Assembly: GCA_965205015.1 (NCBI GenBank)
Contig: OZ242029.1
Span: 1,088,001-1,152,000, forward strand
Length of the DNA: 64,000 nucleotides
From: Candidatus Poribacteria bacterium
Lineage (GTDB): Bacteria > Poribacteria > WGA-4E > WGA-3G
Direction: 5' to 3'
Made by a program: the position numbers and the translations under genes. The notes below the pieces were generated by a model. The model was given only the letters and a program-made list of their open reading frames with translations, was not told where the DNA came from and ran no database searches. Shown piece by piece: positions 641 to 26,661 of the stretch (within the stretch, counting starts at the first letter, position 1; the number at the start of each line of letters is the position of its first letter).

Positions 641-651
641 GGAGTTTCTAT

Positions 652-1533: not shown

Positions 1534-1572
1534 CCTACTTTTGAGTTGCGGCATATCTATGGTGAATTCTTC

Positions 1573-2793
1573 ATGAACTCTTTTACAACGACTTTTATTT
1601 TCTTTCAGATTATTGTTTTGTCTTTATTGTCCTCTTATCTATGGCTAAATAAAACCTGGTATACGCATACCAACACTGCGGCTTCAATTGTAACCATCTT
1701 CGGTGTTTTCGGCACTTTTCTGGGTATTGTCATAGGGCTTGACGGTTTCCAAGCGGCTCCTGATAAAATTCAAGAGAGTATTAAGGAGTTGTTAAAAGGT
1801 CTCAGACTTGCCTTTTGGACATCCCTTGTCGGTATTGGATCAGCGTTGGGTTTAAAGATAATTGCACTGGTCTATCAGACATTGAAACCTGATGAAGATC
1901 CAGGCGAAAAAGCAATATCCAAGACCGATGAACTTCTCAACAGTATAAGGGTTTCGCTCAGTGGAGCAAATGGGGGAACCCTATTCACGGAACTACAGGC
2001 TTTACAAAAGACAGTTGAAAATAATAATCGTCAATGGATAAAAGAATTCAGTGCATTTTCAGAAAGAGTTGTTGAAGACTGTACGGGCCTATTAGTTGAA
2101 GCACTCGAAGCAGTTGTCCAAGATTACAATGCGAAAATCAACGAGCAATTTGGCGAAAACTTTGTAAAACTAAATGAGGCTGTTCTCGAAATTAATAGAT
2201 GGCAGGAACAATACCGCCAACAAATGGATGAACTTGCCACTGAATTTCGTATTGCGGCAGAAAGTGTTGAACAGTCTCGTGAATCATTGGAATCGGCAGC
2301 TGAATCACTCACCCTCATTGGAGGTCAAAGCAAAAATATCGTTTCTATTACTGAAGTATTAGATCCGATCCTTCAGAACTTAAACGATCGATTAGAGGAT
2401 TTCCGCCTGTTGCGCCAGCAAGCCCTTGATGCTTTCCCACAGATAAACAAAGGGCTAGATGACCTCACAAGCACATTTTCAAGTTCCGTTGAGAAATCGA
2501 TTGCCGATTCTGAGCAAAGTCTGCTCAATCAACGCAGCGCAATGGCCGAACATGTTAGACAAATTCGGAGTGCCTTAGAAACGACGACTCAACAATTGAC
2601 CAAAGTCACGAAACCTTTTTCGGAGACCACCGAAAAGATAAAAAACCTCTGGGACACTGACCTTAAGAGAAGCACTGATCTTGACAATATCATACAAGTA
2701 CTCGCCCGTAGTGCGGAAAGACTTGAGGGACATCTGAATCACTTGGATACGTTATCAGAAAGGCTAAATAAAAGAAGATGGTTTGGCTCATGA
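1573..2793 (+). CDS. zorA: ZorA-like MotA/TolQ/ExbB proton-channel protein with long cytoplasmic helical tail
   Basis: Three TM helices including IVTIFGVFGTFLGIVIGL and LLKGLRLAFWTSLVGI; ZorA-type tail motif DYNAKINEQFGENFVKLNEAV...WQEQY; directly upstream of a MotB/OmpA gene. Confidence 0.75.
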   Translation: MNSFTTTFIFFQIIVLSLLSSYLWLNKTWYTHTNTAASIVTIFGVFGTFLGIVIGLDGFQAAPDKIQESIKELLKGLRLAFWTSLVGIGSALGLKIIALVYQTLKPDEDPGEKAISKTDELLNSIRVSLSGANGGTLFTELQALQKTVENNNRQWIKEFSAFSERVVEDCTGLLVEALEAVVQDYNAKINEQFGENFVKLNEAVLEINRWQEQYRQQMDELATEFRIAAESVEQSRESLESAAESLTLIGGQSKNIVSITEVLDPILQNLNDRLEDFRLLRQQALDAFPQINKGLDDLTSTFSSSVEKSIADSEQSLLNQRSAMAEHVRQIRSALETTTQQLTKVTKPFSETTEKIKNLWDTDLKRSTDLDNIIQVLARSAERLEGHLNHLDTLSERLNKRRWFGS

Positions 2794-2856
2794 GAAATAC
2801 GATTCATTCCATGCCAGCATTTTGTATTCGTTGCGAGTTAGATCGGGTTTGAGAAT

Positions 2857-3849
2857 ATGATAGAAAAACACTTTAATCGGTACGGGCAAGAATCGGAAGA
2901 GCACTGGGTTTCGATCTCCGACGTGATGGCGGGGTTGATGGTTATCTTTCTCTTCGTTGCGATCAGTTACATGTTGAACGCCCACCACACAACAAAGCAA
3001 ATTATTGAACATGAGAAAAATATAGAGACCCTCCTTGACGATTACAAGAATTTGAAGGACAAATTAGCGAAAGCTTTACAAACTGAGTTTCAAGGCAATC
3101 CGAATAAAAAGAAGCAATTTGAATCAAAGTGGAAAGGGTATCTGAATATGGATACACTGACCATCGGCTTCAAACAGCCCTTCCAGGTGGGTAGCAAAAT
3201 CGTTCCAGATGAATTTAAAATTTACTTAGCGGATTTCTTCCCACGATATATTGAGATCCTAACGGAAGCTGATTATAGAGAGGAAATTGAGGAAGTCCGT
3301 ATCGAAGGGCATACCTCCAGCGAGTGGCAGGATCAAGTGCCTATTGATGTCGCTTTTATGAATAATATGGAGTTATCGCAAAATCGTGCGAGAAATGTCC
3401 TTGACTATGTGCTGGCAATAGACAATCCCAAAATATCTCAGAATAAGATATGGCTGAAGAAAAAAGTGACAGCAAATGGATTATCTTCGAGTCATCTCAT
3501 CCGGGATTTAGTTGAGAAAGATTCACTGGAACCCACCAATCCTTACGCCATCATCTCAGAGGAAACAGAAATTGAGGAATTCATCGTGAAGTCTGTGCAT
3601 AAGCGACTGCTCCGTGAAATTCCGAACTGGCAAAGGAAGCCAGACATTGATAAAATGGATATAATAAAGAGCGTTAGTGATTTTTTTAAAATAAAACCGA
3701 AACCAGAAGCCATTGAAAGAGTGATTAGTCTTCTTTTGGAGGACAGAGAAGCCTCTCGGCGTGTTGAATTTCGAGTTGTCACAAAATCTGAAAAGGTTAT
3801 TGAGCGCGTAAAACAACTTATGGAGGAATTTAACACGTCGACGGAATAA
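2857..3849 (+). CDS. zorB: ZorB-like MotB/OmpA peptidoglycan-binding protein
   Basis: HWVSISDVMAGLMVIFLF TM with the conserved Asp; OmpA motifs IEGHTSS, NMELSQNRA, TANGLSSS and SRRVEFRV. Confidence 0.8.
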   Translation: MIEKHFNRYGQESEEHWVSISDVMAGLMVIFLFVAISYMLNAHHTTKQIIEHEKNIETLLDDYKNLKDKLAKALQTEFQGNPNKKKQFESKWKGYLNMDTLTIGFKQPFQVGSKIVPDEFKIYLADFFPRYIEILTEADYREEIEEVRIEGHTSSEWQDQVPIDVAFMNNMELSQNRARNVLDYVLAIDNPKISQNKIWLKKKVTANGLSSSHLIRDLVEKDSLEPTNPYAIISEETEIEEFIVKSVHKRLLREIPNWQRKPDIDKMDIIKSVSDFFKIKPKPEAIERVISLLLEDREASRRVEFRVVTKSEKVIERVKQLMEEFNTSTE

Positions 3850-4020
3850 AGTCTATTTGTTTGGAGCATTTTCCCTTGACATTGAGCAAATGTATAAGGA
3901 GAGTTTTAGTGATTTTAAATATAATACCTGTTTTCTTATTTGCTGTCATTTTGGTGCTATAGAGTCAATACCCTTCGCACGGAAGTAAATCTATTATATG
4001 GAGATGAAAAGGAAATTTTG

Positions 4021-5769
4021 ATGAACAAACAGGCAGTTCTCTGTTCTTTAGTTTTCGCAATGTGCGTCTTTTGCGGTTTAGTGCCGATCCCTGCTTCCGC
4101 GCAAGGCATCCTTCTCGCCCAACAGGTGTTTCGGAAACACAACAAGACGCTCCAACGCGCGGATGTCCAAGAAGTCTTGCCACAGGTGCTGGAAGGATTA
4201 AAATCACCAGACACGCAAGCTCTTTTAAATCCGCAAACTATCAATATCGTCATCAATGACCCGGATCTCTTGCCGATATTTATTCCGGAGATAGAACCGA
4301 GGTTTGTGGCACTGCTGCAGCGGGATCAGGAACTCAAGAATTTCCTGAGGGATCCGCCGGTGCAAAGATTGCTTCAGAGTCCAGCGGCAATTGATGCCCT
4401 TGCCGAGCTGTTAGGGGTCAGTGCCCAGCGACCGCCAGACTTGCCTGCACAACAAATCTACAATCAAGCAATTCATTCCGTCGTATGGATAGCAACACTC
4501 GGGGATAACTGGTTCGGTAAGGGAAGTGGCGTTGTGATTGACAAGACACGTCGACTTGTCGTTACCAACGAACATGTCGTCCGTAACACTGAATTGATAT
4601 CTGTGTTTTTTCCGTTTAGACAGAACGGACGCTTGGTAGGAGATGAAGGGTTCTATTATGAGAATTGGGAATGGCTTGATCAGCGCGGTTTTCATGCTGA
4701 CGGTCGGATCGTCGCGAGAAGTATGAGGAATGACCTCGCAATCATCCAACTTGATCATCTCCCAGCAGCAACCCACGAAATTAAGCACGACTTTAGCAAA
4801 AACGTTGAAGATGGCATGCAGGAACGTGATAAGGTCCATATCTTGGGGAATCCGGGGAAGCAGTTGTGGCATTGGATGCCGGGCACTTTTGTAGGCGATG
4901 GGCGAAATTGTTTACCGAGCAAAGGCGATTGCTTCATCATGGAAGCTGGGGCAAGGGGTGGCAATAGCGGAGGTCCCGTCCTCAACGGGCAAGGGACACT
5001 CATTGGAATCCTGACTGCCGGGGACCGTGAAACCCGGTCATTGGCATCTCCTGCAAGGAACATAAAAGCGCTGCTGAAGACGGTTCCCGCGCATTTGGTC
5101 ACTGTCCCACCCCAACGGACGCATCCTAAACGGGTCTTCAAAATTAGAAACCACACCGGGGTTACTATCCCTTACCAAATCAGGTGGTCACATAACAACG
5201 ATTGGCAACGTTATTCCCTTGAGACGGGTTTTATCAGGACGCACAGGTCAGATGGACAGCAGGTTCCCTCAAATTACCCGAAAATCCAGTTTGATCACAT
5301 CGCCGGGGATCAATGGTTTACAGGGAAAACTTATAGATTGGAAACCGCCCTATTATTGGGTGAGAACAACGGTGGTGCCCCCACGTATATTTTTAGATAC
5401 AACCGTCGGGGAGACAGACTGGATCTGTTCCGTGATGTAAATGCAGCCCCCGCCCTCTCAAAAGTCGTTCCAAAAGAGAATTCCCTGTTCGCCAACTATC
5501 CGAACCCGTTCAACCCCGAAACGTGGATCCCCTATGAACTCGCCGAACCTGCAGAGGTGAACATCGCTATCTATACCACCGATGGGACGCTGGTTCGGAC
5601 GTTGCGGCTTGGACATCAACCCGCGGGTATGTATCAGAGCAAAGATCGTGCGGCGTATTGGAACGGCACAAACGCACTTGGTGAATCTGTGGCGAGTGGT
5701 GTGTATTTTTATACACTCAAAGTTTCCGGCGAATTTACAGCGACGCGGAAGATGCTAATACGGAAGTAA
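4021..5769 (+). CDS. Secreted trypsin-like serine protease with C-terminal FlgD-Ig-like sorting tail
   Basis: Signal peptide; catalytic triad TNEHVV / NDLAII / GNSGGP; C-terminus NYPNPFNPETWIPY...AAYWNG...ASGVYFYTL...TRKMLIRK. Confidence 0.85.
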   Translation: MNKQAVLCSLVFAMCVFCGLVPIPASAQGILLAQQVFRKHNKTLQRADVQEVLPQVLEGLKSPDTQALLNPQTINIVINDPDLLPIFIPEIEPRFVALLQRDQELKNFLRDPPVQRLLQSPAAIDALAELLGVSAQRPPDLPAQQIYNQAIHSVVWIATLGDNWFGKGSGVVIDKTRRLVVTNEHVVRNTELISVFFPFRQNGRLVGDEGFYYENWEWLDQRGFHADGRIVARSMRNDLAIIQLDHLPAATHEIKHDFSKNVEDGMQERDKVHILGNPGKQLWHWMPGTFVGDGRNCLPSKGDCFIMEAGARGGNSGGPVLNGQGTLIGILTAGDRETRSLASPARNIKALLKTVPAHLVTVPPQRTHPKRVFKIRNHTGVTIPYQIRWSHNNDWQRYSLETGFIRTHRSDGQQVPSNYPKIQFDHIAGDQWFTGKTYRLETALLLGENNGGAPTYIFRYNRRGDRLDLFRDVNAAPALSKVVPKENSLFANYPNPFNPETWIPYELAEPAEVNIAIYTTDGTLVRTLRLGHQPAGMYQSKDRAAYWNGTNALGESVASGVYFYTLKVSGEFTATRKMLIRK

Positions 5770-6162
5770 AGCTACAACACTCCACATTCACAGAGTTTCA
5801 AAAAGAAATGAGTGTCCACACGCTACAAGACGACATCCAAAAGGCTAACAACCTGCGGAGACAGGGAGGGGACACCTCACAAACCGTTCCACTTGATAGT
5901 CGTCATAGAGATGCTTGAAAGCGGGAACTTTGCGAAAACCGTATCCCTTTCAGAGAAATTAAAAAGAAGAACCCTTTTTTCCAGAGTTGATAACGGTTTT
6001 CAATAGCGGGAACGCATCAAACCGGCAACCGAGTCTCCACGATCCGTTTTTCCATCTGAAAACCGACGGCTTTTGATGCAAGATTATTTTCTTTGAACGA
6101 AACATATCACGTCATTGTTCCGCCAAGTTCACACGAACATGAACCAACAGAGAGAATGTTAA

Positions 6163-8134: not shown

Positions 8135-9209
8135 ACGCCTTGTGCTAATTAGATTTTTCATGCGAGGACGAGATTTTTCAGTTCCATAAGGGGTCTGCCG
8201 AGTATATGATTGATGAAATACCCGAGTAAACACGCCCTGAACTTATTACTCATTCGGGTCCGGACGCCCCACTGCCCCATCTACGCACCTGGGAGACACA
8301 AAACTGATCCATCAACTGCCCGATTGTGGTCTCCACACGTCGGTGCAACCGCACTTGAAGTTTCCGAAACGTCTCGGGATATTGTCGTTTCTGGTTGCGC
8401 CGAAGCGTCGGGAGTAAACAGGTGTTTTCGGTCGCTAACACCTCCTCTTGGAGGCTTTCAGAGATATATCCTTTGTCGCCTAAAAGGATCGGATAGCGTC
8501 CGCACTTCACGAGCAGAGGCAATACCTTTCGGTCATCTATATTCGCAGAAGCGATTGCAAAATCAACAGGCACGCCATCAACGATGGTGATCAGATGTCC
8601 ATGAAACCCAAAGAACGTTCCGAGACCTTTCGTGGCACAGGGTCCATAAGTCGCAAGACACCCCGAAGCATCTGCCCACCGTAAGTCAGATGTTAAAGTT
8701 TTCACACGTTTGACATCACAAATCGGTATCGGGAAAGAATCAACAATGAACACGTCTGTTTGAGGCAAGCAGGTCCGCAAGGTCTCTCGGACGACTTCAC
8801 TCGCTGCCATGAGATTTCGCCGTCGTCGATTGAAACGAGATCGCTCCAGCAGAGACGGGAAAAGCCCGCGCAGTTGCTCTTTCAACCGTGGATACCCAGC
8901 ATTTTCGCTATCCGCACCGATATATTCAAGCAGGTAGGCGATCGTGAGAATATCAGCATCTGGGCAATCGGGATTCCGTCCGGGTCTGTGGCATTTGGAA
9001 AATGGGCATCATAAACTGTTTTGATGATCTTCTGAACCACACCTGCGACAGTGAGGCGCGTGTGAGGTTGATTTTTCAGTTGCAACGCATAGCGTTCTAA
9101 AGTAGACTGTAACTCCATCCTTATGCCTCCTTTGGAGTCTGTGTTTACCCCATCAGGATTGCATAAGGATGGACTTATTCAAATACCAAAACTAATTAGC
9201 ACAAGTCGT
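8135..9209 (-). mobile_element. IS982-family insertion sequence with frameshifted transposase
   Basis: 18-bp terminal inverted repeats ACGCCTTGTGCTAATTAG (8135-8152) and CTAATTAGCACAAGTCGT (9192-9209), 1 mismatch; ~1.07 kb; DDE motifs RSRFNRRRR, IVDSFPIPIC, LLGDKGYIS and RRVETT; ORF split into 8882-9118 and 8250-8885. Confidence 0.85.
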
Positions 9210-9227: not shown

Positions 9228-12200
9228 ATGTCAAAATTTTTAGAAGGACTGAATCCATCACAACGAGAAGCTGTTACACATACAATAGGTCCCCTCTTAA
9301 TTATCGCCGGCCCTGGCTCAGGTAAAACGCGAACGGTTGTTCATTCTATCGCTTATGCTATAGAAAACGGTGTGATGCCTGAACAGATTTTGGCATTTAG
9401 TTTCACTGTGAAAGCGAGTGAAGAGTTGCGAGATCGGGTGAAAGAGAATGTAGGAGAGGAAAAAGGATCTCTCGTTAACATATCTACATTCCATAGTTTC
9501 TGCCGACAGGTTTTGAGAGAAGATATTGATAAACTTGGTAGAGGCTACGCACGGAATTTTAGAGCATTAGAGGAAAATAATCAGAGAAAAATTGTTAAAA
9601 ATTTAGCGCGCATTAATGAACAGCGGGTCCGCGCCGAGATTGAACATATACAATCTTATAAATTTCCTAACCCTGAAGAGGTTCTTAATTTTATTAAAAA
9701 GTGCAAAGCGAGAGAAATCAGTCCATCTGATGCTGGACCTCACGCCCACGAGTTCCACAGGTCAGAGGACTATATAAAGATTTATGAAAGTTATGAGCAA
9801 TTTCTTAAAACTAAGGGGTGGATTGATTACGAAAACCAGCAGCTTTTTACCGAGGAACTTTTTAGAAGTGTCCCTGAAGTTAAAACCAAATGGCAAAATA
9901 GGTTTGCGCTTATTTTCGTTGATGAATACCAAGACACCGATCCTATTCAATATCGGATTGTAAAAGCTCTGGCAGAATCTCATCAGAATTTGCGTGTTGT
10001 TGGGGATGATGACCAGGGAATTTACGGTTGGCGGGGAGCTGATATCCAGAACATATTAAACTTTGAGAAAAACTATCCAAACGCCAAGGTAATTTCGCTC
10101 GGGCAAAATTATCGTTCAACACAAAAGATAGTTGAGATATCTCATGCTTTGGCAGAATTTAATCCAGATCGGCGAGATAAGGACCTGTTCACGCGGAACT
10201 TTGAAGGCGAGAAAGTAAAATATCTCCACTGTGACAATGATGAGGAAGAGGCTGCTACTATCGCCTCTTTTATCCAGCGGTCTATTGATCAAGGCAATTG
10301 GCGGCCAAGCGATTTTGCAGTGCTGTACCGTACGAATAAACAAGCATACGCTTTGAAAACAGCACTTAGTGATTTAGATATCTCCATCATGACAATTCAT
10401 AAATCTAAAGGGTTAGAATTTCCGAATGTATTTGTTACAGGAATATGCCGAGACTTGTTACCACATTATCACAATCGCGACGAAAAGAACTGGGGTGAGG
10501 AATTGCGGCTCCTTTACGTCGCAATGACTCGCGCGAAAAATTGGTTATGTCTATCTTCCTATGAAGAAGAAGGGAAATTCCAGCATAAGCGTGGACGGTC
10601 TCCTTTTTTGGAACGTGGTTATATTCCTTCCCGTCTCCTTGAATCTGTAGAGACACTTGAAAGCGTGATGATTCCTCCGAGTCCTCCCGAAATGACTGTT
10701 CCGGTAACTACCAGAGAAACAGCAGAATATATTGAACCTCTCCCTGAGAAACTACTTGGGGATGGTATGACTGTCCTGGGGATAGATCCTGGTATCCAAA
10801 ATGTGGGTTGGTCAATCACTAAAAAATCACCAGTTGGCTACACTGTTCTTAGATCTGGCACCCAGATTACCACTGGATGGCAAAATACCCTTGTACAAAC
10901 AGAACGCACAATCAATAAACTGATAACTTTATATCATCCCGATGCAATTGCAGTTGAAAAACTTGAGGGGGCTACAGAGGAGTGGTTCCGTTACGTCGCA
11001 GGATGTGTAGCCACCATAAGAAATATTTCCGATCAACACAAAATTGAATGCCAACTCTATACGCCGCAGCATGTTAAATACATCGCTACGAACAACAGAA
11101 ACGCATGTAAGTTGGATGTCCAGAAGGGGGTCATGCGAATATGTAACCTCCAGCAAATTCCAGAACCGCACCATTCTGCGGATGCAATTGCGACAAGCCT
11201 CTGTTACCTCAGGAATTACCTGAACTCTTCCCGTTTTGAAGGCAACAAACGAAAACAGGAACACTATGAGGTGGGTTGTGGTTACTTGGATAAGAAGCAC
11301 TATGAAGCAGCGATTGATACATTCAAGGAGACAATAAACATAGATCCTGTTTATACGCAGGCATACTATGGATTGGGGCGAGCGTACCTTGCACAAAATG
11401 ATTTGGATGGAGCGGAAACTTCAGCTGCAACAGCCCTAAGGCTTGCGGAAAATAATCATCCTGATTCGCAAAAACTTTTGGACGCTATAGAACGGTACCA
11501 CTCTGGTTGCAATTTCTTGAACAATAGCGAATGGAACATGGCGATTGATAAATTCCAAGAATCTATAAACTTAGGACCCACTTTTACTGAAGCACACTGT
11601 GGACTTAGTAGGGCATACTTGGAGGTAGGTAATCTTGAAGCAGCCAAAAACGCAACCGAAGAAGCCTTAAGACTCAGAGATGATTATCTACCTGCTCGGG
11701 AACTTTTGAATGATGTAAAAATGAGATCCTACTACAAAGGCAGAACTTACTTTCACAGTGAGGAATACAATCAAGCAATTCCTGAATTTCAAAGGGCAGT
11801 GAAAATTGGACCAGACTTTAAAGAGGCACATCGCTATCTTGGTGAGGTTTACCTTAAACTAGGAGATCTTGAAACCGCAGAAAAAGAAGCAAGAGAGGCT
11901 TTGAGAGTTGACGCTACCTATGAACGCGCCAGTGTACTGTTAAGAGAAATAAAGCAAAAACATAAAGAGCACGGCGATGACTATAGGAAGAAAAAAATGT
12001 TCACCCAAGCACTAAAATCCTACCAACAAGCACTACGTATTGACAATAAATACAAAGAAGCCTATCACAATCTCGGCATCCTTTATCGAAGGATGAAAAA
12101 ATACGACAAAGCAATAGAGGCTTACCAGAAGGCAATAGACATCGATGAAAGATCTCACGTAACCTATAGCGATTTCAGTTTCGTTTACCGCGAAATTGGT

Positions 12201-13199
12201 GAGCCCGCGAAGGCAGTGGACTTACTAAAGCGTGCAATCGCAACCAAACCAGATTACCAAAGGGCATACTACAACCTTGCTGAAACTTACTTTGAAATGA
12301 AAAATTTACAAGCCGCAAGTGAAACACTTCTTGAGTCTTTAAGGCTTGATGCCGACGACCAAGACACTCTTAAACTACTAAAGAATATACAGAATGTCTA
12401 TTTAAAACAAGGACGCAATTACTTTAGACAGAATAACCTTGAGGCAGCAGAAATTTCTGTGAAGGCAGCCTTAAGGCTTGGTTCTGACTATCAACGCGTG
12501 CGTAGACTTTGGAATGATATAAAATCAGGTTACTACAAACAAGGTCTCGCTTGCATAGAAAACGGCATGTATGCTGCAGCCATAGGCCTTCTCCAGAAAG
12601 CAGTAAAAATGGATCCGAGGTTTAAAGAAGCACACTACTCACTTAGTGAAACTTACTTTAAGATGGGAGATTTTGAAACTGCCGAAGAAAAAGTAAGACA
12701 GACATTATGGATTGATCCAAACTATGAACTGGCATCCTGCCTTTTGATATCTATAAAAGAAGAATATTACAAGCGTGGTTTGACATCCCTTGAACAGAAT
12801 GAATGGAAGGCAGCAGAAAAATTCGCGAAAGAAATATTGAGAATTGATCCAAACTATGAACCAGCATATAGACTCTTAAAGCAAGCGTGTTACGAACTGG
12901 GCCTCGCCCATTTACAAAAGGGAGCACATTCCAAAGCTATAAGTCCACTTCGGAAAGCAAAGGATATTGATCCAAATTGTGAAAGAACGCGCTACTCCCT
13001 TGGATTTGCCTACTTCAAATTGGACAGGTTAGAAGAGGCAAAACTGGAGATCAAAGGCGCATTATCCATTCAACCCAATTATTCTAAAGCCCGTGAACTT
13101 CTGTCAGAGATAAATGATCCCCGTAATTGGTTGAAATTAGGCAGGGCGAAGGTGCAACGATGGACGCGTCGGATAATAAACCATATCGGGTTCAGTTAA
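9228..13199 (+). CDS. UvrD/PcrA-like SF1 helicase fused to a RuvC-like nuclease and a TPR array
   Basis: LNPSQREAV, AGPGSGKT, VDEYQD, VGDDDQGIYGWRGA, NYRST, TIHKSKGLEF, ELRLLYVAMTRAK; then VLGIDPG...AVE...HSADAIA (RuvC); then ~600 aa of TPR-like repeats. Start placed at the ATG just after the IS982 end. Confidence 0.9.
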   Translation: MSKFLEGLNPSQREAVTHTIGPLLIIAGPGSGKTRTVVHSIAYAIENGVMPEQILAFSFTVKASEELRDRVKENVGEEKGSLVNISTFHSFCRQVLREDIDKLGRGYARNFRALEENNQRKIVKNLARINEQRVRAEIEHIQSYKFPNPEEVLNFIKKCKAREISPSDAGPHAHEFHRSEDYIKIYESYEQFLKTKGWIDYENQQLFTEELFRSVPEVKTKWQNRFALIFVDEYQDTDPIQYRIVKALAESHQNLRVVGDDDQGIYGWRGADIQNILNFEKNYPNAKVISLGQNYRSTQKIVEISHALAEFNPDRRDKDLFTRNFEGEKVKYLHCDNDEEEAATIASFIQRSIDQGNWRPSDFAVLYRTNKQAYALKTALSDLDISIMTIHKSKGLEFPNVFVTGICRDLLPHYHNRDEKNWGEELRLLYVAMTRAKNWLCLSSYEEEGKFQHKRGRSPFLERGYIPSRLLESVETLESVMIPPSPPEMTVPVTTRETAEYIEPLPEKLLGDGMTVLGIDPGIQNVGWSITKKSPVGYTVLRSGTQITTGWQNTLVQTERTINKLITLYHPDAIAVEKLEGATEEWFRYVAGCVATIRNISDQHKIECQLYTPQHVKYIATNNRNACKLDVQKGVMRICNLQQIPEPHHSADAIATSLCYLRNYLNSSRFEGNKRKQEHYEVGCGYLDKKHYEAAIDTFKETINIDPVYTQAYYGLGRAYLAQNDLDGAETSAATALRLAENNHPDSQKLLDAIERYHSGCNFLNNSEWNMAIDKFQESINLGPTFTEAHCGLSRAYLEVGNLEAAKNATEEALRLRDDYLPARELLNDVKMRSYYKGRTYFHSEEYNQAIPEFQRAVKIGPDFKEAHRYLGEVYLKLGDLETAEKEAREALRVDATYERASVLLREIKQKHKEHGDDYRKKKMFTQALKSYQQALRIDNKYKEAYHNLGILYRRMKKYDKAIEAYQKAIDIDERSHVTYSDFSFVYREIGEPAKAVDLLKRAIATKPDYQRAYYNLAETYFEMKNLQAASETLLESLRLDADDQDTLKLLKNIQNVYLKQGRNYFRQNNLEAAEISVKAALRLGSDYQRVRRLWNDIKSGYYKQGLACIENGMYAAAIGLLQKAVKMDPRFKEAHYSLSETYFKMGDFETAEEKVRQTLWIDPNYELASCLLISIKEEYYKRGLTSLEQNEWKAAEKFAKEILRIDPNYEPAYRLLKQACYELGLAHLQKGAHSKAISPLRKAKDIDPNCERTRYSLGFAYFKLDRLEEAKLEIKGALSIQPNYSKARELLSEINDPRNWLKLGRAKVQRWTRRIINHIGFS

Positions 13200-13425: not shown

Positions 13426-14252
13426 TGTACTGCCTACGGTTTTTTAGACCACTCCCTAAAACAAGATTGTGCTACAATACAATCTCACTGGTGCGTTTCA
13501 ACGAATAATGATGGAATGTAAGTTCAATTCTTACTCGGTAAACCCAACATCCGTATATCTCACTCTAATGGCGTTGCTGGAAACGCTAACGTGGGAATCA
13601 AGAGGAAATGGCGCACTCCCAAGAACATAGGCAAAACTAAAGAGAGCAATCCCTTTAGTGTTCGGAATTGGAGCGTCCGACAGAACTCACATGGGTAAGC
13701 GAAAGTCGAATGCCTGAAAAATCCCGTCATGTCGAATACAATAGTCTTGAGCGGAAACGCAACAGTTGTAGTGCTATAAGGTGTAGCCACAAGTTACTAC
13801 ATCAATTGTGGAAATGCGGAGCATTCCCCCACAAACTGGAATAAATAGCACAAGGCACAATCTGTGTCCATCGGGACATAGGGTAACCCTAAATGAGTTG
13901 CGAAGTCTCTATACAGGAAGTTAGACAGAACCTAAACGGACTCAAGTAGTCCGATAGGTTGAGGAGATTAGGTAGTCTCGTGTGAGACGAGCATAATCAG
14001 GTTTACTGCTTTGAAATACTTACAGACCTCGTATCTCAATGGAGAAAATCACGCTTGCGTGTCTCCTTTGGATGTCATAAGTAAAGAAAAGTGGTCTATA
14101 TGACCTAACGTGTATAACACCACAGTAAACTGGAAGGTTTCATGTGCGGTGAAAGTCGCACGCACGGTTTGGAAGGGGAACCGTAGAGGGGCGACCCTCT
14201 ACGGCTACCTTAACTTTGCTAATTTTGTGTCCAAATTAATATTGGCACTTCA
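13426..14252 (+). mobile_element. Non-autonomous IS3-family shell (IRL and IRR only) enclosing the intron
   Basis: Left end TGTACTGCCTACGG...TTAGACCAC is similar to the IS3 remnant end at 27418. Right end GTGTCCAAATTAATATTGGCACTTCA reverse-complements to TGAAGTGCCAATATTAATTTGGACAC, giving TG...CA termini. Confidence 0.6.
13491..14214 (+). ncRNA. ORF-less group II intron (IIB-like) with degenerate domain V
   Basis: 5' GTGCG; DIV closing stem GTTTACTG (14001-14008)/CAGTAAAC (14123-14130); DV TGCGGTGAAAGTCGCACGCACGGTTTGG; DVI stem CCGTAGAGGG-GCGA-CCCTCTACGG with bulged A; 3' AAC. Confidence 0.8.
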
Positions 14253-14304
14253 GTTGCGTGGATATGCAAACGGAGACTCAGGTCTCAGAAATTCCAATCA
14301 TAAA

Positions 14305-14919
14305 ATGAATAACCAACTTTTTCCAGAAGATCGATATGAAATAGAAGATATTCCAATACGAGACGGAATGTTATGTCTCTACCCATACCTTTTCTCGCCG
14401 GAAGAACGAGAAACCTTTTTTGCCCAACTCAGAGATCAGGTGGATTGGCAGCAAGAGGAAATCAAATTGTATGGCAGATCCATTCCGTTACCTCGTTTAA
14501 CCGCATGGTTTGGCGATGAAGGGAAAACCTATATGTATTCAGGCATAAACGTTGTGCCTGAACCGTGGACTCCAACTTTGTTAAAAATCAAAGACAGAAT
14601 AGAGGAGGTTTCAGAAATAACATTCAACAGCGTCTTACTTAACTACTACCGAAATGAACGTGACAGTGTGTCTTGGCACAGCGATGACGAACCCGAACTG
14701 GGCAAAAACCCGACGATTGGCTCGGTAAGTTTCGGGGATGTCAGGACCTTTCAACTCAAACACAAAACGGACACATCGCTAAAGATCAGCAGAGACCTGC
14801 CGGATGGCAGTTATCTCCAAATGGCTGGGAGTACCCAACACCATTGGCTACACCAGATACCAAAGCGGACCCGAAAAATAGGTTCGAGGATCAATTTAAC
14901 GTTCAGAGTCATATTATAG
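14305..14919 (+). CDS. alkB: AlkB-family 2OG-Fe(II) dioxygenase (ALKBH2/3-like)
   Basis: PRLTAWFGD, FNSVLLNYYRNERDSVSWHSDDE, HQIPK and RINLTFR. Confidence 0.9.
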   Translation: MNNQLFPEDRYEIEDIPIRDGMLCLYPYLFSPEERETFFAQLRDQVDWQQEEIKLYGRSIPLPRLTAWFGDEGKTYMYSGINVVPEPWTPTLLKIKDRIEEVSEITFNSVLLNYYRNERDSVSWHSDDEPELGKNPTIGSVSFGDVRTFQLKHKTDTSLKISRDLPDGSYLQMAGSTQHHWLHQIPKRTRKIGSRINLTFRVIL

Positions 14920-14951
14920 ACGCGCGGATGTTCCTTAAGGAAATCTAAAGT

Positions 14952-16388
14952 ATGATAGACCCAATTGTGATTGTCTATAGCAGCATTGTCGCTCTTATTA
15001 TCGGAGGACTTATAGGTGGGTTTCTCTATAAATCCATGTCTCGTCAACAGGACATAATATATACTACCCTTGAATTAGAAGAAGAACGCCACCGTCGCAA
15101 GGAACTTGAAAGTGCTTTATTGCAGGCCCGGCAGGAAGTCGCACAGCTCTCTCGCGAAAACAAACACATTTCCGGCACATTGACGCAAACCTCGCAACGA
15201 AACGAGCAATTCTCTAATACGTTGACACAAGAGAACCACGCCATTGCTTTAGAAAAAGAACGCGAGAATCGCGATAAAGTGGAAAACGCCCTACAGCAGA
15301 CACAGCAAGAAATCAAAAAAGAACGCGAGAACCGCGAGAGACTGGAACGTGCCGTTCGCCAGACACAACAGAAAGTAGAACAGCTCTCTCGCGAAAAAGA
15401 ACAACTCTTCGGTGCATTGACACAAGAGAGCCGGTATCGCGAGACCGTTGAAAGAAAATTGGCATTTTCCGGTACCTCTGGCTATCCTATCCTTCTCAAC
15501 GAGTTGTATGCCGCAAAACATCTAAAAACCGACATCCAAAAACGCGACTATCTTCAAGAGTTGCAAGGGGCTGCCGGGGCGTTATGGCATGAGTATCAAG
15601 GCACAGATATTTCGCCAGACTACTCAAGAATGGACTATCAAGAAGCATATCTGCTCTGCTACTTTTTGCCATATTCTCAACCTGTCCCTTACCTGCTCAA
15701 CCAGTTGGTTCTCAGGAAAGAGTTCCCCTATCAACTTCCCGAAACAGGCGTATTAACTGCCACCTTCTTTGGATGCGGGCCGGGGCCAGAGCTACTGGGT
15801 CTCATGCGTTATCTGCGATCCTTTCAAGCGTCCCTGTGTATTTCCGCTGCCTTGTTGGACAGGGAGACTTGGGCACATAGCAGACGTATTGTGTTTCAGC
15901 ATTTATTAGATCGCGCGTGGGATCCAGAGAACTACGATATCCAGGAATTCAAGACAGACATCGCAGGAAGCTCAGAAGTTTTTTTACCTGCCGATTCAGA
16001 AGAATGGGTAAAAAGGTCGGAGTTAATCGTCATTCAAAACTGCCTTAATGAAAGACGGAATGCCACGTCCGAACGGTCAATAGAGAACCTGAAGTGCCTT
16101 GTAGAGAAAATGAAAACTGGAGCGGTGATGCTAATCATTGAGCGTGGTACGTATGTTAGAAAATTACTGGGCGAATTCCGCTACATATTGCAAGAAGAAT
16201 TCAGGGGTCGCATACACGTTAGCAGCAAAATAGAGGGTGTTGAAAAAATTACACCAATCCTTGAGGTGATTCCTGAAGAACTGGAAGTTAATTTCTTGAG
16301 GGAATTGCAGGCCAACGCCATCAACTCCGTGGAATTTACGTGGATCGCCATCTCCAAGATGCCGTCAGGAACTGAGTCCCCTGTCTAA
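14952..16388 (+). CDS. TM-anchored coiled-coil protein with a C-terminal SAM-dependent methyltransferase-like domain
   Basis: N-terminal TM; repetitive coiled coil (EKERENR repeats); YQEAYLLCYF, FFGCGPGPELLG, LIVIQNCLNE and GAVMLIIE motifs. Confidence 0.7.
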   Translation: MIDPIVIVYSSIVALIIGGLIGGFLYKSMSRQQDIIYTTLELEEERHRRKELESALLQARQEVAQLSRENKHISGTLTQTSQRNEQFSNTLTQENHAIALEKERENRDKVENALQQTQQEIKKERENRERLERAVRQTQQKVEQLSREKEQLFGALTQESRYRETVERKLAFSGTSGYPILLNELYAAKHLKTDIQKRDYLQELQGAAGALWHEYQGTDISPDYSRMDYQEAYLLCYFLPYSQPVPYLLNQLVLRKEFPYQLPETGVLTATFFGCGPGPELLGLMRYLRSFQASLCISAALLDRETWAHSRRIVFQHLLDRAWDPENYDIQEFKTDIAGSSEVFLPADSEEWVKRSELIVIQNCLNERRNATSERSIENLKCLVEKMKTGAVMLIIERGTYVRKLLGEFRYILQEEFRGRIHVSSKIEGVEKITPILEVIPEELEVNFLRELQANAINSVEFTWIAISKMPSGTESPV

Positions 16389-16500
16389 ATCAAGAGTGCG
16401 ATATAATACGCAGTATTTGGGGAGAGGACCTCTGTTGAATTTAAACAATATTACTTGTCTGAACTTTACCGATGTTGACGATACAAACGAAAAAGGAAAT

Positions 16501-19500
16501 ATGAATATGCACCAGAATCCTTTGTCAGAGTTTGAGCTAGGTCAGATTGTTTTCTTGAAAGCCGATCCCTCTACTCGGGGGGCTGTTGTAGCGATCCTGC
16601 CGGGTACCCCTGAGAACCGAATTAACGTTTTTGTTGATGGAAATGTTCATACTTTTTATCCATCTCAGTTGCAACTTGAGGTTCAAGATAGTTCTCGTGT
16701 CTTTTCATGTGATGACTTTCATGCTTACCTAACGGCACTCCAAATTCGGTACCCCGGTTTATCAACCTTATATTCGCTCAATGCAGCGCGGGTTGACTTT
16801 ATCCCCTATCAATACCGACCCGTTCTGAAATTCATCAAAGCGGACTTACCAAGGCTGCTCATTGCCGATAGTGTTGGTGTTGGTAAAACGATTGAGGCTG
16901 GTCTGATCTTACGCGAACTACAAGCACGTAGCAATATTGAATCTGTTCTCATTATATGCCCGCGTCCCTTGGTGGCTGAGCAAAAGTGGCAGCGGGAGAT
17001 GAAACGATTTGACGAAAATTTTGAACATTTGGACGGAGATAAGTTGCGATATTGTATCAATGAGATGCACCTTGACGGTGAGTGGCCAGAACAATACCAG
17101 AAGGTGATTCTCCCGTATTCATTATTGAATAACACACTCCTTTTCGGTCCAGGAGGGGGTCGTAAACGAAAGCGTGGCAAAGGGCTTTTAGACCTGGACC
17201 CACCGCCGCGCTTTGATCTGGTCATCGTTGACGAAGCGCACCATATCCGAAATCAGGGGACAGCCAACCACGAAGCAGTCCGGTTTTTCTGTGAAAATGC
17301 GGAAGCAGCGATATTTCTTACAGCAACCCCTATTCAGCTCGGCAGCCACGACCTATTTGTCCTGCTTAATGTTCTCCGCCCAGATCTGATTCTGGATGAG
17401 GAGAGTTTCAATCACATGGCGGAGCCAAATCACTTCATTAATCAAGCGGTTAACGCTGCACGGGCACAAGAGAGCGATTGGAAGCAGATCGCAAAGGAAG
17501 CTTTTGACCAAGCAGGTGCAACCGACTGGGGGCAATCAATTCTCAAGGCTAATCCTGAATTCAAGCGAATTAGAAATCAGCTTGCTGGGAGGCGTATTAC
17601 CCCTGAAGATCGCGTCCAACTCATCACCGATATAGAGGCACTCCACACATTTTCAGGAATAATCAATAGAACCCGCCGTCGCGATATCGGTGAGTTTACT
17701 ATTCGCAAATCACAGACCGTACCGGTGAAATTGACGACAGAGCAGGATGAACTTCATGAAGCACTCCTTGAAACGCAAGCGGAAATATTCCGCAGCTTAC
17801 ACGGCAATCAGAGTGTTAACTTTATGATGACAACGCTCCGTCGACAGTTGGCAAGTTGTTTGCATGGGCTCGAACCCCTCCTTGAGGATATTTTGAACCG
17901 CCGCCTTGACGAACTTGAATGGACGGAAGCTGATGCGATTGAGGCAATTCCCTCATCGGAATTAGTTACACATATCCGAGAACATGTGCAAGTGCTTCTT
18001 GAGAGAGCGAAGAATCTTGATTCAGAAGACTTGAAACTGGAAGCACTTCGGACAATTGTTCGTGATCGGCAAAACCTTCCGAATAACAAGGTTATGATTT
18101 TCAGCAGCTTCCGTCACACACTTTTCTATCTGCACGCACACCTAATGCGCGACGGATTTCGCGTTGGATTGATTCATGGGGGCACCCCGGACGAGGAACG
18201 CCTTGACCTCCGGAATCGGTTTGAAAAACCCCGTTCAGACCCCGACAGTCTTGACTTGATGCTCTTTTCGGAGGTCGGCTGTGAAGGGTTGGACTACCAG
18301 TTCTGTGACTGCATCGTTAACTACGATCTGCCGTGGAACCCAATGAAGGTTGAACAACGTATTGGTCGTATTGATAGGAGGGGACAAAAGAGCGAGAGCG
18401 TTAGCATTATCAACCTGATTACACCCGGAACCGTTGATGCAGATATTTATGAACGGTGTCTCCTTCGTATCGGGGTGTTTGAGAGCGCGTTAGGTGGAAA
18501 CGAGGAAATCCTGAGTGAAATCACAACGGAATTACAAGACATCGTCCAGAATCACGGGTTGACTCCAGCACAACGGAGAACCCAATTGGAAGTGTTAGCT
18601 GATAGCAAAATCGGATTGGTGTTGGAACAGGAAAAACTTGAGGCACAGCAATTAGACCTGTTTGGACTGCGCTTTCCTGAGGATAAGATGGAGAGAGAGG
18701 TCGAGGAAGCGTCGAGTTTCTGGTTATCTTCGGACTCAATACAGCGGCTCGTCACGCGTTATCTTCACCAAAAAATCGGGACAGCGCAAGAATTCATCCT
18801 CGGTGAAAAACCCCTTAAAACCCTTCGACTTTCTGAGGAAGCGCGGAATACCTTATTGGGTGATTTTCAGCAGTTCCCTCGGGAAAGGACACGTGTCTAT
18901 CGTGACTGGGAAAAATGGTTAAAAGGATCGGAGCAGCATTTATCTATAACCTTTGAGGCTGACTGTGCCACAGGGAATCCTGACGTTGTATTTATCATGC
19001 CGACCCACCCATTCGTGAAACAGGCAGCAGCGGTGTTAAACACAGACCAAGAAGTCGTTACAGCACTGAAGGTCAGAACCAACAAGGTGCCTCCGGGACG
19101 TTATGAGTTTGCTATTTACCAATGGCGCTTTCTTGGGATTCGGGAACATTTAGTCCTAAAACCGATTGCTTTATCAGAGGCGTTGGGGCCGCATCTTAAC
19201 GACCTACTTGAAAGGGCAGAAGATGGTGATACACAGGGAAGCCAAACCCCAATCCAGAAAGAAGCGTTAGAAAAAACGCACCAGCACCTATGGGCTGAAG
19301 CACGGGACAAACATCAGGAACGCATACAGGCGTTAGCAGATTACCGTAAAGAGAGTTTGTCAACTAGTCATCAAAAACGGGTAATGCTACTTGAAGATAA
19401 GATTGCACAAGCAACCGATCCAAGAATTCAACTGATGCGACAGAGCGAACTTGACAACGCTGAGTCTGATTACCGGCGGCGTATCCAAGTGTTTAACGAG

Positions 19501-19563
19501 GCAATGGCAAAAGCAGATGTTACCGCGGAACCGGTGGCGTATGGGATTCTGGAAGTGGAGTAG
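16501..19563 (+). CDS. SNF2-family helicase (RapA/DrmD-like)
   Basis: [66 protein letters not shown]. Confidence 0.9.
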   Translation: [1020 protein letters not shown]

Positions 19564-19615
19564 CGTGCATAAAGATTTATATATTGTTTTCCTGTAGGTT
19601 AAGGAGGGATTTATT

Positions 19616-22600
19616 GTGTCAAGTGCGCAATTTGAACATATTCGGAGCATTAGACAGGATTTTCATCAAGGGAGTAAGCGGCTTAAAGAGAGTTCAAACA
19701 ATTCAATCAAGACGCTCGCTGATGATCTTTACAACAAGCATACGCATTTTATCTTTGAATTGATTCAGAACGCTGAAGACAACACATACGAAAAACAAGG
19801 GACTTATCCGCCTTATATCTCCTTTCAGTTAACAAAAACCGATCCGACTTGCACCCCTGGATCTAAGGGCGCGTTGATTATCCAAAATAACGAGATTGGC
19901 TTTCAACGCGATAATGTGGACGCTATTTGTGCAGTTGGTGCGACTACAAAAGAACAGGGACAAGGATATATTGGTGAGAAAGGCATAGGTTTCAAGTCTG
20001 TTTTTCGTGTAACAGGAAATCCTCATATTTTTTCTAATGGTTACCATTTCTGTTTACCCGAGTATGATGCGGAAACTGGGCTTGGATACATTGTACCACA
20101 ATGGATTGATAGCCCGCCAGAAGACCTATATCTCTCTGAAACTCATATTATTCTGCCGTTAACGAAGCCGGATTTTGGATATGAGACGATTGAGCAGATG
20201 CTACAAGATATTGAGCCAGAGACTCTTCTTTTTCTCTCAAAACTTGAAGAAATTCGAATTGGAACCGATACTGGAGATAATCTGACTATTTTGAAAGATA
20301 GTACAGCAATACCAGAGGTTGCAGTCATAGTTGAAGGTAATAAGCAGGGGAAAGTTTTCTCTAAGTCGGATAGTTTCTTGGTGTGCACCAAACGTTTTGA
20401 TAGACCTGTAGAGATTCGTCATGAGAAACGAAACGGAATAGAAAATCGAGATATCTCAGTTGCATTTCCATTGGATGAAAAATCAACTGCGATTGGAAAA
20501 ATTTTTGCCTATCTTCCTGTCCGATCGGATACCGGATTCCCATTTTTAATTAACGCCGATTTCATTCTACCCAGTTCGCGTGAAGATATTCAGGATGTAC
20601 CTTGGAATTACTGGTTGATGGACTGTGTGGCAAATTTGGTTACATCTGAATTATTACCGCTTCTAAAAGAAAAGCGACTTTTAGGCGTTAACTTTCTTGA
20701 AGCACTTGCCAACCGACTGAATAATCTTGTGTATGATGGAGATAGTTTGTTCTATTCTATTTTTAGGGGAGTTTGTAAAGCCCTGAAAAACGAGGCGTTA
20801 CTCCCTACCAGCGATGGCGAGTTTGTATCTGCGCGAAACGCCGCACTCACGCGTTCCGATGCAGTTAGAAACCTGATCACCCCCGCTCAATTACGCATAC
20901 TTTTGCGTTCTAACGCTGATCGTAATGTTCCACGCAAATGGCTATCTGCTGAAATCACGCTAGACCGAACTCCATATCTCCGTAGCTACCTCATGGAGAT
21001 TCTTGGAATTGAAGAAGTCACACCTGATATGTTTGCCCGTAGGCTCACCAAAGAATTCCTTTCCGCACAGACTGACGAATGGTTTGTCAAATTCTACAAA
21101 TTTTTATCCGAACAGCCCGCATTGTGGCGTTCCAACGGTGCCGTTCTAAGAACCAAACCGATCTTGCGTCTCCAAGATGGAAGGCATGTGAATCCACCTC
21201 AAGAAGATTCCGTTCCTACGGCCTATTTGTCACTTGATAAGACTCCTGACACTTCATTGCCGATTGTGAAATGGGAAATTACCCAAGATAAAAGTGCCTA
21301 TCGGTTTCTAAGAACGTTAGGCGTTCAAGAATGCGACATCGTTGCGGAAGTCATTGAAAAGGTGCTCCCAAGATACAAGAACAAGATGTCGCCAGTTCCC
21401 ATTAACGAGCATCTACAGGATTTTGACAAAATTCAACGGGCATATAACACAGATTCAATAGAGAAAAAAGAGCAGCTTAAAACAATGCTGCGAGAGACCC
21501 CTTTCATTCGGGCAGAGGAATCGGACAAAGATGGAAATGTCTACTTTGAACCCGAGTGTCTCTATTTTGGCGATAATACTTTGCGTTCATATTTCGCTAA
21601 CAACCCTTCATGTGCCTTTGTTGATCTTGATATTTATCCGCCTTCTGCCAAATCGTTGTTCGGCGATTTAGGGATTTTGGGTTCTGTACGAATTCACAGG
21701 GAACCGGAGGATTCGCAAGGGTACGTTACGATTGTGAATGAGCGTGGAAACCACCAGAGAGGATGCTTCGGGTTTGATTATGGTATCACCGTTGATGGAT
21801 TAGAACACGCTCTCAACACCCCAACTCTTGAGAAAAGTTCTTTCATTTGGAATCACATCGCTATTCCTAATGCAGATTGCATTAAAGGGTTTGTGGAAAA
21901 GTCCAGTACCCAAACTTATAGTAAGAGTTCGTTTGAGGAGATTGAATCCTATTATTTTGGACGTTTGTTAATTGATACTGTATGGCTTCCTGATTCCGAT
22001 GGAAACATGCACAGACCGAGTGAAATTACTCTTGATGATCTTCCCGCTTCATTCAAGAAGGATGAAGAATTGGCAAAACAACTTGGTATGCCAATTAGCA
22101 AAACTCGGATAGTTGACAAGGTTGCCCCAGAAATTGGTGTATCTTCGGAGATTCTCAATGGGATCGTTAATGCCTCACCGGAAATGCTTCAGCAAATTGA
22201 ATCACTGTTACAGTTAGGACCTGACTTTGGTCATTTGCCACCCTCTCCGTCCCCCCTTTTCGATGGCTTGTCGTCCTCTCAAACTACCGCTTTCCCAGTG
22301 CGTTCTGTATCGAACCCGGCGCGACGAAAAAAAATGATTCTCGCAGAACTTAAAGAGTCACCGGACCAGGAATATGTTGAAAAAAGAAGGAGTGTTCGGA
22401 CGACGCGGAGTAAGATCGATCCTAAAACGTGGCTCAGTGCTGAATATATGAATGATGACAGTCAAATTATATGCCAAATCTGCCAAGAGGTGATGCCGTT
22501 TAAATATAAGGGCGAAAATTACTATTTTGATGCGGTGGAGATGCTGAAAGGGTACTTCACGAAAGAGTACGAGGCACAATTCTTAGCACTTTGTCCAGAG

Positions 22601-23347: not shown

Positions 23348-23456
23348 TAAAGGCGACCTACAAATCACAGGTATCGATGCAACTTGAAAAAAGTGTATAG
23401 AAAGTTTTTTGTTTTACAATTAGGATAGACTATAGAGATGGAAGGGAGCACATTAC

Positions 23457-26642: not shown

Positions 26643-26661
26643 TCGTTGCCAAAAACATGTT

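Follow-up and report, generated by a model that had tools for sequence, protein, structure and literature searches.

The 64-kb stretch of DNA analysed here (the window; positions 1,088,001 to 1,152,000 of contig OZ242029.1, assembly GCA_965205015.1, from a Candidatus Poribacteria bacterium) contains a gene that joins a UvrD/PcrA-type helicase, a RuvC-type endonuclease domain and an array of tetratricopeptide repeats (TPRs) in one uninterrupted open reading frame (ORF; Table 1). Pfam assigns to the 1323-aa product the families UvrD-helicase, UvrD_C, RuvC and several TPR families, in that order, and the translation agrees with the single ORF of this length that a first-pass annotation had placed at 9228-13199. 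The longest ORF at the same place opens at an ATG at position 9123 and would specify 1358 aa; relatives give no support for this upstream start and, as Met1 at 9228 is nearly invariant in an alignment of 14 relatives, 9228 is the likely start. The N-terminal 680 aa constitute a conserved enzyme module that combines a PcrA-like superfamily 1A (SF1A) motor without a 2B subdomain with a catalytically complete RuvC-type endonuclease. In family members the C-terminal 200-970 aa consist of a TPR array, to which an FGE-sulfatase (C-type-lectin-like) domain is added in some. The hosts of the helicase-RuvC-TPR gene are sponge-associated Poribacteria.

Within the helicase part, UvrD-helicase (PF00580) covers aa 8-284 at 271.9 bits (cut-off 23) and UvrD_C (PF13361) ends at aa 446 with 134.8 bits. 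The SF1A motifs announced in the first-pass annotation were all found, are of the PcrA/UvrD type, and are invariant, Walker A and B included, in all 14 full-length members; they include GPGSGKT, DEYQD, GDDDQ.IY, NYRST, MTIHKSKGLEF and LLYVAMTRA, conserved blocks that we take to correspond to the named helicase motifs. The best sequence match is PcrA (1PJR; E-value 1e-95), which aligns in two pieces, residues 4-385 of the fusion with PcrA 8-376 and residues 384-477 with PcrA 558-652. PcrA residues 377-557, the 2B subdomain, have no counterpart in the fusion helicase, and this gap, a feature absent from the earlier annotation, is family-wide. Thus, of the four subdomains that characterize UvrD, PcrA and Rep (1A, 1B, 2A and 2B), 2B is missing. 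At the 2B junction the window copy lacks another 21 alignment columns (16-21 residues) present in most relatives, a deletion it shares with four close relatives, P0003, P0005, P0007 and P0028 (5 of 43 aligned rows in all); a contig from DNA run X5 has 45 extra nt there relative to the window. The scores of NCBIfam models likewise remain below their equivalog cut-offs for PcrA (TIGR01073, 410 vs 911 bits), Rep (352 vs 951) and UvrD (315 vs 1144). All helicase motifs are therefore shared with PcrA, UvrD and Rep (1PJR, 2IS1 and 1UAA), but the fusion has neither 2B nor the C-terminal region of PcrA, with the linker, RuvC and TPR parts in its place, and it represents an extra paralogue beside the genome's canonical PcrA/UvrD copy. 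The nearest ESM Atlas clusters for aa 1-700 were plain UvrD-like helicases of 469-985 aa (scores 0.87-0.90), and no helicase-RuvC cluster was seen among them. A structural model of aa 1-690, built from 14 alignment rows, was too poor to use (mean predicted local distance difference test score, pLDDT, 63.6; predicted template modelling score 0.44), with low pLDDT in the linker. Rep lacking its 2B subdomain is constitutively active, and by analogy the 2B-less motor of the fusion may be so too; a natural SF1A helicase of this kind bears on the long-standing question of how 2B restrains such motors.

The middle domain had been described as a complete RuvC-like domain beginning at about position 10767; the domain assignment stood, whilst its Pfam boundaries lie at 10773-11204. 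RuvC (PF02075) is matched over model positions 1-147 of 148 with 62.4 bits (cut-off 22.2), and the NCBIfam RuvC model NF000711 over aa 514-663 with 75.7 bits against an equivalog cut-off of 163. As the Pfam cut-off is passed and that of the NCBIfam equivalog is not, the domain belongs to the RuvC family without being an equivalog of housekeeping RuvC. Sequence alignments to RuvC of Thermus thermophilus, Pseudomonas aeruginosa and Deinococcus radiodurans gave E-values from 5e-8 to 1e-5 (6S16 and 4EP4 at 5e-8), and all RuvC motifs quoted in the first-pass annotation are present and align to the T. thermophilus protein (6S16, 4EP4). The D-E-H-D tetrad comprises D520 (nt 10785-10787), E577 (10956-10958), H649 (11172-11174) and D652 (11181-11183); GIDPG holds the first Asp, AVE the Glu, and HSADA both the His and the last Asp. 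These four residues and K617 are invariant in 17 of 17 aligned rows (14 fused and three canonical Poribacteria RuvC domains), and K628 is kept in at least 90 % of them. The His at the third catalytic position, remarked on in the first-pass annotation, is no oddity, given that T. thermophilus RuvC and the canonical Poribacteria RuvC have the same residue.

The predicted structure of this part points the same way. An AlphaFold model of aa 500-685 reached a mean pLDDT of 83.9, and its ten best Foldseek matches in the PDB were all bacterial RuvC (template modelling score by target 0.82-0.87; root-mean-square deviation 1.9-2.9 Å), in agreement with the RuvC/RNase H fold proposed earlier. Compared with RuvC of known structure (1HJR, 4EP4, 6S16, 6LW3 and 7XHJ), the fused domain shares the fold, the D-E-H-D tetrad as in T. 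thermophilus and two conserved lysines at 21-25 % identity; known RuvC, however, is a stand-alone dimer of 160-190 aa, whereas here it is an internal domain of a 1323-aa chain with no evident link to RuvAB. Two copies of aa 500-685 predicted as a complex from the 17-row alignment scored 0.08 against a mark of 0.42. Two features set the fused domain apart from canonical RuvC. The loop after the catalytic Glu, which in Escherichia coli RuvC bears the aromatic wedge Phe69, is remodelled relative to canonical RuvC: there is no aromatic residue at Glu+3 or +4, and a W-F pair found another 8-13 residues along the chain is itself lacking in three of the 14 members. Furthermore, canonical RuvC has no equivalent of the strongly conserved helix (SLCYL.SYLNSSRFEGNKRK) that comes after the last catalytic Asp. 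The fused domains are only 23-27 % identical to the host's own RuvC and form a tight group, with 20 family matches at 76 bits or more (19 of them at 119 bits or more) and one more family fragment of 46 residues at 62.5 bits, whilst stand-alone RuvC proteins score at most 68.5 bits at ~33 % identity. No other long RuvC fusion occurred among the best 150 of 1007 RuvC-domain matches from a search of 1.84 billion representatives; of the seven clusters of nearest stand-alone relatives, the one that is named belongs to Armatimonadota.

That the three parts truly form one gene is supported by several lines of evidence. A protein search listed 120 rows (query included), 108 of which align over the full helicase-RuvC module in one piece; the rows that bear a name all come from 'Candidatus Poribacteria', where they are labelled RuvC, TPR protein or hypothetical. 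In an independent DNA run, X4, contigs identical to the window bridge both domain junctions, and the X5 contig also spans the helicase, RuvC and the start of the tail. Misassembly was therefore ruled out by the one-piece rows, the independent junction-bridging contigs and the repeated loci. In addition, a 3224-nt contig of RNA library X17 spans the same three parts in a relative that is ~92 % identical, which is a weak sign of expression.

The possibility that the fusion is simply the housekeeping enzyme of its host was considered with a census of related genomes. A canonical stand-alone RuvC is present in 118 of 120 genomes of a phylum sample (124-183 bits; ORFs of 159-308 aa), including all 15 that carry a RuvC domain inside an ORF of at least 800 aa, such that the objection that this might be the only chromosomal RuvC in a housekeeping role fails. 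In three related genomes the canonical RuvC (134-162 bits; ORFs of 167-197 aa) stands beside a fused one scoring 68-75 bits, and a canonical PcrA/UvrD of 727-765 aa was found in five of five genomes checked (three carriers and two non-carriers). Because relatives keep canonical stand-alone copies of both, the fusion as the only RuvC or UvrD was rejected, and it is not the housekeeping form of either.

For the C-terminal part, the ~600 aa of TPR-like repeats noticed earlier measure ~620 aa. Pfam TPR families cover ~aa 690-1300 (TPR_2, 215 bits over 11 stretches), and the tail is most similar to itself at an offset of 78 aa, the next best being 34 and 44; no tandem repeats were found in the TPR region at the DNA level. 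Mean identity to the window copy is 68 % for the helicase and 66 % for RuvC, as opposed to 39 % for the tail. Tail lengths cluster in classes, for example 642 and 564 aa, which are one super-repeat apart. When two enzyme modules are at least 85 % identical, as in 188 pairs, their tails may be anything from 23.5 to 98.5 % identical (median 61), and in 56 of these pairs they fall below 50 %; P0005 and P0067, for instance, have modules 96.8 % identical and tails 25.2 % identical. The tail is thus exchanged as a cassette between otherwise near-identical enzyme modules. An FGE-sulfatase domain ends 21 of 108 rows, and its distribution on the module tree demands at least 11 changes, eight of them forced by well-supported branches; when the labels were shuffled a mean of 19.3 changes was needed, and none of 500 shuffles was as low as the observed 11. 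This C-terminal domain has therefore been gained or lost at least eight times.

A diversity-generating retroelement acting on the FGE-sulfatase tail was not supported, there being no template-like repeat of the 3' end and no nearby RVT_1. When the last 418 nt of the L002 gene were compared with the rest of two genomes, matches were 70-94 % identical, the long ones (>100 nt) 70-75 %, and none passed nt 303 of the 418, so that the 3' end of the L002 gene is without a repeat there; a reverse transcriptase (RVT_1) was present in only one of four genomes, away from the fusion gene. As a separate observation, proteins with a trypsin-like peptidase, TPRs and a C-terminal FGE-sulfatase domain are encoded in the same genomes (L139, G019:C101, 2-2068; L144, G002:C1, 1071-3137; both ORFs run past the 5' end of the stretch studied), and the tail type is accordingly shared with a second enzyme head.

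The distribution of the gene is patchy: the GTDB family of Poribacteria to which G039 belongs has 111 genomes, of which 21 carry the gene and 90 lack it. In 13 of 16 loci the flanking genes are the same, and these define what we refer to as the usual site. Upstream lie an iron-containing alcohol dehydrogenase, a pyrroloquinoline quinone propeller, a radical S-adenosylmethionine enzyme, an AMP-ligase and at times a 162-aa ORF; downstream are an FAD oxidoreductase (cl1), an NMT1-type binding protein and dnaN, the last of these 2-5 kb downstream in eight of the 16 loci. In the loci examined, the gene at this site comes without an integrase, a transposase or repeat boundaries, and no travelling partner gene was seen in the loci compared; it is a lone gene. 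The sole family member from a metagenome scan, L051, is also at the usual site, with an enzyme module 90 % identical to that of the window. In all 20 non-carriers examined the flank genes are adjacent and the site is empty, with a gap of 19-1280 bp. Two of these 20 otherwise empty sites hold relics of the helicase N-terminus between the conserved flank genes, one of 183 aa at 58 % identity (L040 of G047, 2053-2616) and one of 22 aa at 82 % identity (L049 of G077, 2142-2207), which indicates loss by deletion. A frameshift, perhaps a sequencing error, divides one copy in two, and the contigs of G128 (second copy) and G134 are too short to provide context. As an observation in its own right, positions 6952-12020 of L022 (G020:C2) contain, away from the usual site, an N-terminally cut member of 799 aa that starts inside UvrD_C and is flanked on both sides by 426-aa DDE transposase genes of like orientation; this looks like a composite-transposon arrangement or the relic of an insertion sequence (IS) event.

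Exchange of the gene between lineages is indicated by both its composition and its phylogeny. Across seven loci its GC content lies between 37 and 41.5 %, while cl1 and cl8, its neighbours, are at 43-54 %; the difference of 1.6-14 points is smallest in L003 and largest in L027 (40.2 vs 50-54). Pairwise divergence of the gene only weakly tracks that of cl1 (Spearman 0.25, 66 pairs). In approximately unbiased (AU) tests, for which the groups were named after the trees had been seen, neither data set accepts the clade of the other: p is 0.028 for the flank clade on the fusion data and 4.6e-73 for the fusion clade on the flank data. The gene is accessory and lineage-restricted, and the GC deficit and the conflict between gene tree and flank tree point to its exchange between lineages. 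Among the 14 closest pairs, the ratio of nonsynonymous to synonymous substitution rates (dN/dS) ranges over 0.09-0.25 in the helicase, 0.10-0.28 in RuvC and 0.12-0.74 in the linker. Both enzyme domains are under purifying selection and seem to be active.

Table 1. Features of the window, with positions counted from its first nucleotide
Feature	Position (nt)	Strand	Basis or remark
Coiled-coil membrane protein	2-640		First of a four-gene block
293-aa protein without family match	652-1533		Four-gene block
ZorA2-like MotA/ExbB protein	1546-2793		193 bits
ZorB2-like MotB/OmpA protein	2857-3849		229 bits
Trypsin-like protease with secretion-sorting tail	3940-5769		Next gene after the ZorB2-like gene
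IS-type DDE transposase ORF, upstream of fusion gene	8250-8885	-	Pfam DDE_Tnp_1_3, 59.7 bits
Helicase-RuvC-TPR fusion, whole coding sequence	9228-13199	+	1323 aa plus stop; one uninterrupted ORF
SF1A PcrA/UvrD-type helicase core, aa 1-446 (subdomains 1A, 1B and 2A only)	9228-10565	+	Pfam PF00580 and PF13361; PcrA 1PJR
Junction at missing 2B subdomain	10374-10385	+	PcrA 1PJR alignment
Linker, aa 447-515	10566-10772	+	Conserved EY.EPLPEKLLG motif directly before RuvC
RuvC-type endonuclease domain, aa 516-659	10773-11204	+	Pfam PF02075, NCBIfam, PDB alignment, fold match
Family-specific helix after last catalytic Asp (SLCYL.SYLNSSRFEGNKRK), RuvC-to-repeats joint	11196-11255	+	S657-S667 invariant; helix 149-185 of domain model
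TPR array, aa 677-1300, variable tail	11256-13127	+	About eight 78-aa super-repeats (34 + 44 aa)
Short basic C-terminal tail, aa 1301-1323	13128-13196	+	Read from translation
AlkB-like 2OG-Fe(II) oxygenase	14110-14919		Matches PADLOC CARF_2OG model
DrmD-like (DISARM) SNF2 helicase	16396-19563		364 bits
Two paralogous TmtA-like (Tiamat) sacsin/GHKL ATPases	19616-26642		1243 and 1061 aa

The window copy itself is an exception to the fixed position of the family. With an IS transposase next to it and not one of the usual neighbours within the 64 kb, it lies off the usual site. The first 28 kb of the window have a GC content of 40-46 %, save for the 2-kb bin 4001-6000 at 49 %, and the remaining 36 kb one of 47-52.5 %; this composition step at 28 kb suggests an accessory island of at least 28 kb with its left border beyond the window. 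As to possible island borders, the window has no tRNA gene. The ZorA2- and ZorB2-like genes belong to a four-gene block (1-3849), possibly a Zorya type II system that is incomplete or a variant, no ZorE-like gene being recognised downstream of the ZorB2-like gene. On the other side of the fusion gene, a run of defence-like genes (14110-27399) includes the AlkB-, DrmD- and TmtA-like genes of Table 1. This copy has thus moved into an island of defence-like genes, as the exception and not the rule for the family. Within the same run we also observed a 478-aa coiled-coil protein and, in the first TmtA-like ATPase (1243 aa), a C-terminal Hfq-like domain (aa 1185-1235). Neither CRISPR arrays nor cas genes were seen next to the fusion gene in the window or the loci examined, and promoter and terminator scans around the gene gave counts not above those of shuffled sequence.

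Repair and immunity both rely heavily on proteins that fuse a helicase to a nuclease, among them RecB/AddA, Cas3 and Dna2. AddA and RecB pair a UvrD-like helicase with a PD-(D/E)XK nuclease, Cas3 an HD nuclease with a superfamily 2 (SF2) helicase, and archaeal Hef an SF2 helicase with XPF; like these, the fusion couples an ATP-driven DNA motor to an endonuclease in one chain, but it differs in its RuvC-type nuclease of RNase H fold and its long variable TPR tail. Membership in AddA/RecB was rejected, as the only nuclease is RuvC and the AddA/RecB models match the helicase alone, far below their cut-offs. With Avs and other NLR-like proteins of the STAND class the fusion shares a C-terminal TPR array beside a nuclease in one chain, the repeat part being variable; Avs, however, has a central STAND (NACHT/NB-ARC) NTPase where the fusion has an SF1 helicase, in the order motor, nuclease, repeats. 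No STAND NTPase or Avs model was among the best 25 of 45 Pfam, 25 of 62 NCBIfam and 25 of 55 PADLOC matches, and Avs membership was ruled out because the only NTPase domain seen is the SF1 helicase. Gabija, in which a UvrD-like GajB is encoded next to the OLD/Toprim nuclease GajA, was likewise ruled out, there being no GajA-like neighbour in the window or in loci L002 and L003.

Two published settings come closer in their mix of parts. Passages of one source describe Cas12a2-linked separate genes for a TPR-DUF3800 protein (RNase H fold), UvrD and a TPR protein beside a CRISPR effector (PMC10910872). As far as those passages go, the same combination of UvrD, RNase H fold and TPR is thus found in a defence setting, but as separate genes with DUF3800, whereas the fusion is one chain with RuvC PF02075 (PMC10910872). 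Similarly, parts of another source present FGS domains as ligand-binding parts of bacterial conflict systems (PMC7159879). The likeness, on those parts of the source, lies in the FGE-sulfatase domain, which is always terminal in the chain after varied enzyme heads (here helicase-RuvC or trypsin); the vWA-MoxR, STAND or GTPase partner genes of such modules were not seen near the fusion (PMC7159879). In agreement with the first-pass annotation, which knew of no described protein of this kind, we found no published description of the helicase-RuvC-TPR architecture in the searched literature, although the supplementary architecture tables of PMC7159879 and PMC10910872 could contain examples. The fusion is thus an addition to the helicase-nuclease fusions, the pairing of a UvrD-type motor with a true RuvC occurring in none of the searched literature.

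As to function, the reading we favour, at a probability of roughly 0.45, is that of an accessory, horizontally exchanged single-chain helicase-nuclease that is aimed by its tail against phages or other mobile DNA. Under such a mechanism the tail would bind a target-marking protein or other ligand, or would bring two chains together; the 2B-less motor would load and then unwind or branch-migrate DNA, and the RuvC domain would cut the branched or unwound product, with the possible outcome that the invader's replication or recombination intermediates are destroyed. Held somewhat more tentatively is the specific proposal of a single-protein immunity, in which a genuine RuvC resolvase would be the killing part, driven by a 2B-less PcrA-type motor, and swappable TPR/FGE-sulfatase cassettes would recognise invader molecules. 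If this gene is an immune gene, it would represent a new type of effector and a clear case of recognition tails swapped as cassettes on a constant enzyme head, and as such a compact model for the evolution of specificity in bacterial immunity. A Holliday-junction resolvase would itself have been turned into an anti-phage or anti-plasmid weapon, distinct from the distant RuvC-like domain of Cas proteins, and its target would be the branched DNA on which many phages depend when they replicate and package their genomes. This would also bear on how uncultivated sponge symbionts cope with phages.

The phage-targeting sensor-helicase-nuclease that the first-pass annotation had envisaged is consistent with the patchy presence, low GC content, tree conflict and swapped tail of the gene, as well as with the island of the window. 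A number of observations weigh against it. No known defence family supports it, and PADLOC reaches the fusion gene only via the helicase, through generic UvrD-type models (GajB, at up to 291.8 bits, and RTasHel). The analogy with Avs does not carry over, since the NTPase is a motor and not a STAND switch. Judged by the positions of cl1, a site marker present in 109 of the 111 family genomes, the gene has the same fixed location in 19 of the 21 carriers, surrounded by metabolic and housekeeping genes rather than by defence islands, and no other cargo was seen there. The mean dN/dS of the tail, 0.27-0.40, signifies constraint, with no overall positive or diversifying selection. Moreover, Poribacteria are generally rich in TPR and FGE-sulfatase proteins, and tail exchange may therefore in part reflect abundant donor sequence. 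The RNA-library contigs may come from carried-over DNA and, of little weight, none of the 80 viral IMG/VR loci kept matches past residue 523 or into RuvC.

The foremost alternative, which we regard as less likely, is an accessory repair or recombination enzyme acting on the host's own chromosome, either as a one-chain alternative to RuvAB-RuvC or in fork processing akin to that of Hef or AddAB. Its substrates would be stalled or reversed forks and Holliday junctions, with the TPR tail as a scaffold to replisome or repair partners; should it cut junctions or forks alone, it would be a natural one-chain resolvasome. Such a role would suit a helicase closest to PcrA (410 bits with TIGR01073; 1PJR at an E-value of 1e-95), a true RuvC with junction-contact lysines, purifying selection on all three parts, a single gene without a travelling partner and, in 19 of 21 carriers, a fixed site by housekeeping genes with dnaN 2-5 kb downstream in eight of 16 loci. 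The gene is nevertheless dispensable, as the 90 of 111 family genomes without it, the empty sites and the relics attest, and its carriers also keep canonical RuvC and PcrA/UvrD. The GC deficit of 1.6-14 points and the flank-tree conflict point to exchange between lineages, and a tail that is replaced wholesale between near-identical enzyme modules is not what a conserved cellular partner would lead one to expect. Even the proximity of dnaN loses force, given that it belongs to a flank block that non-carriers also keep, although dnaN itself was not searched there. On balance, the evolution of the fusion gene looks more like that of an immune gene than that of a repair gene.

UvrD, PcrA and Srs2 act as anti-recombinases or remove proteins from DNA, and the fusion might, improbably, be a helicase of this sort in which RuvC serves mainly for binding or pairing on branched DNA and the tail sets the place of action. 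The remodelled loop after the catalytic Glu, without the aromatic residue at the wedge position and with a W-F pair missing in three of 14 members, would be explained in this way. An inactive domain, however, would be expected to lose its catalytic residues, and here all four are invariant in 14 of 14 members, the lysines are conserved and dN/dS of the domain is 0.10-0.28; a RuvC unable to cut is therefore unlikely. A gene that serves a mobile element or itself, perhaps in maintenance or exclusion, and that spreads through recombination at the conserved flanks without benefit to the cell, might account for the low GC content, the patchy presence, the conflict between trees and the two displaced copies that have IS elements as neighbours, but is very improbable for a lone gene lying exactly between two core genes, with no integrase, transposase or repeat boundaries at the usual site and no member among the viral contigs kept. 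Separately from these readings, many of the IMG/VR contigs (L057-L136) were seen to encode UvrD/PcrA-like helicases of their own, 26-43 % identical to the helicase part of the window gene.

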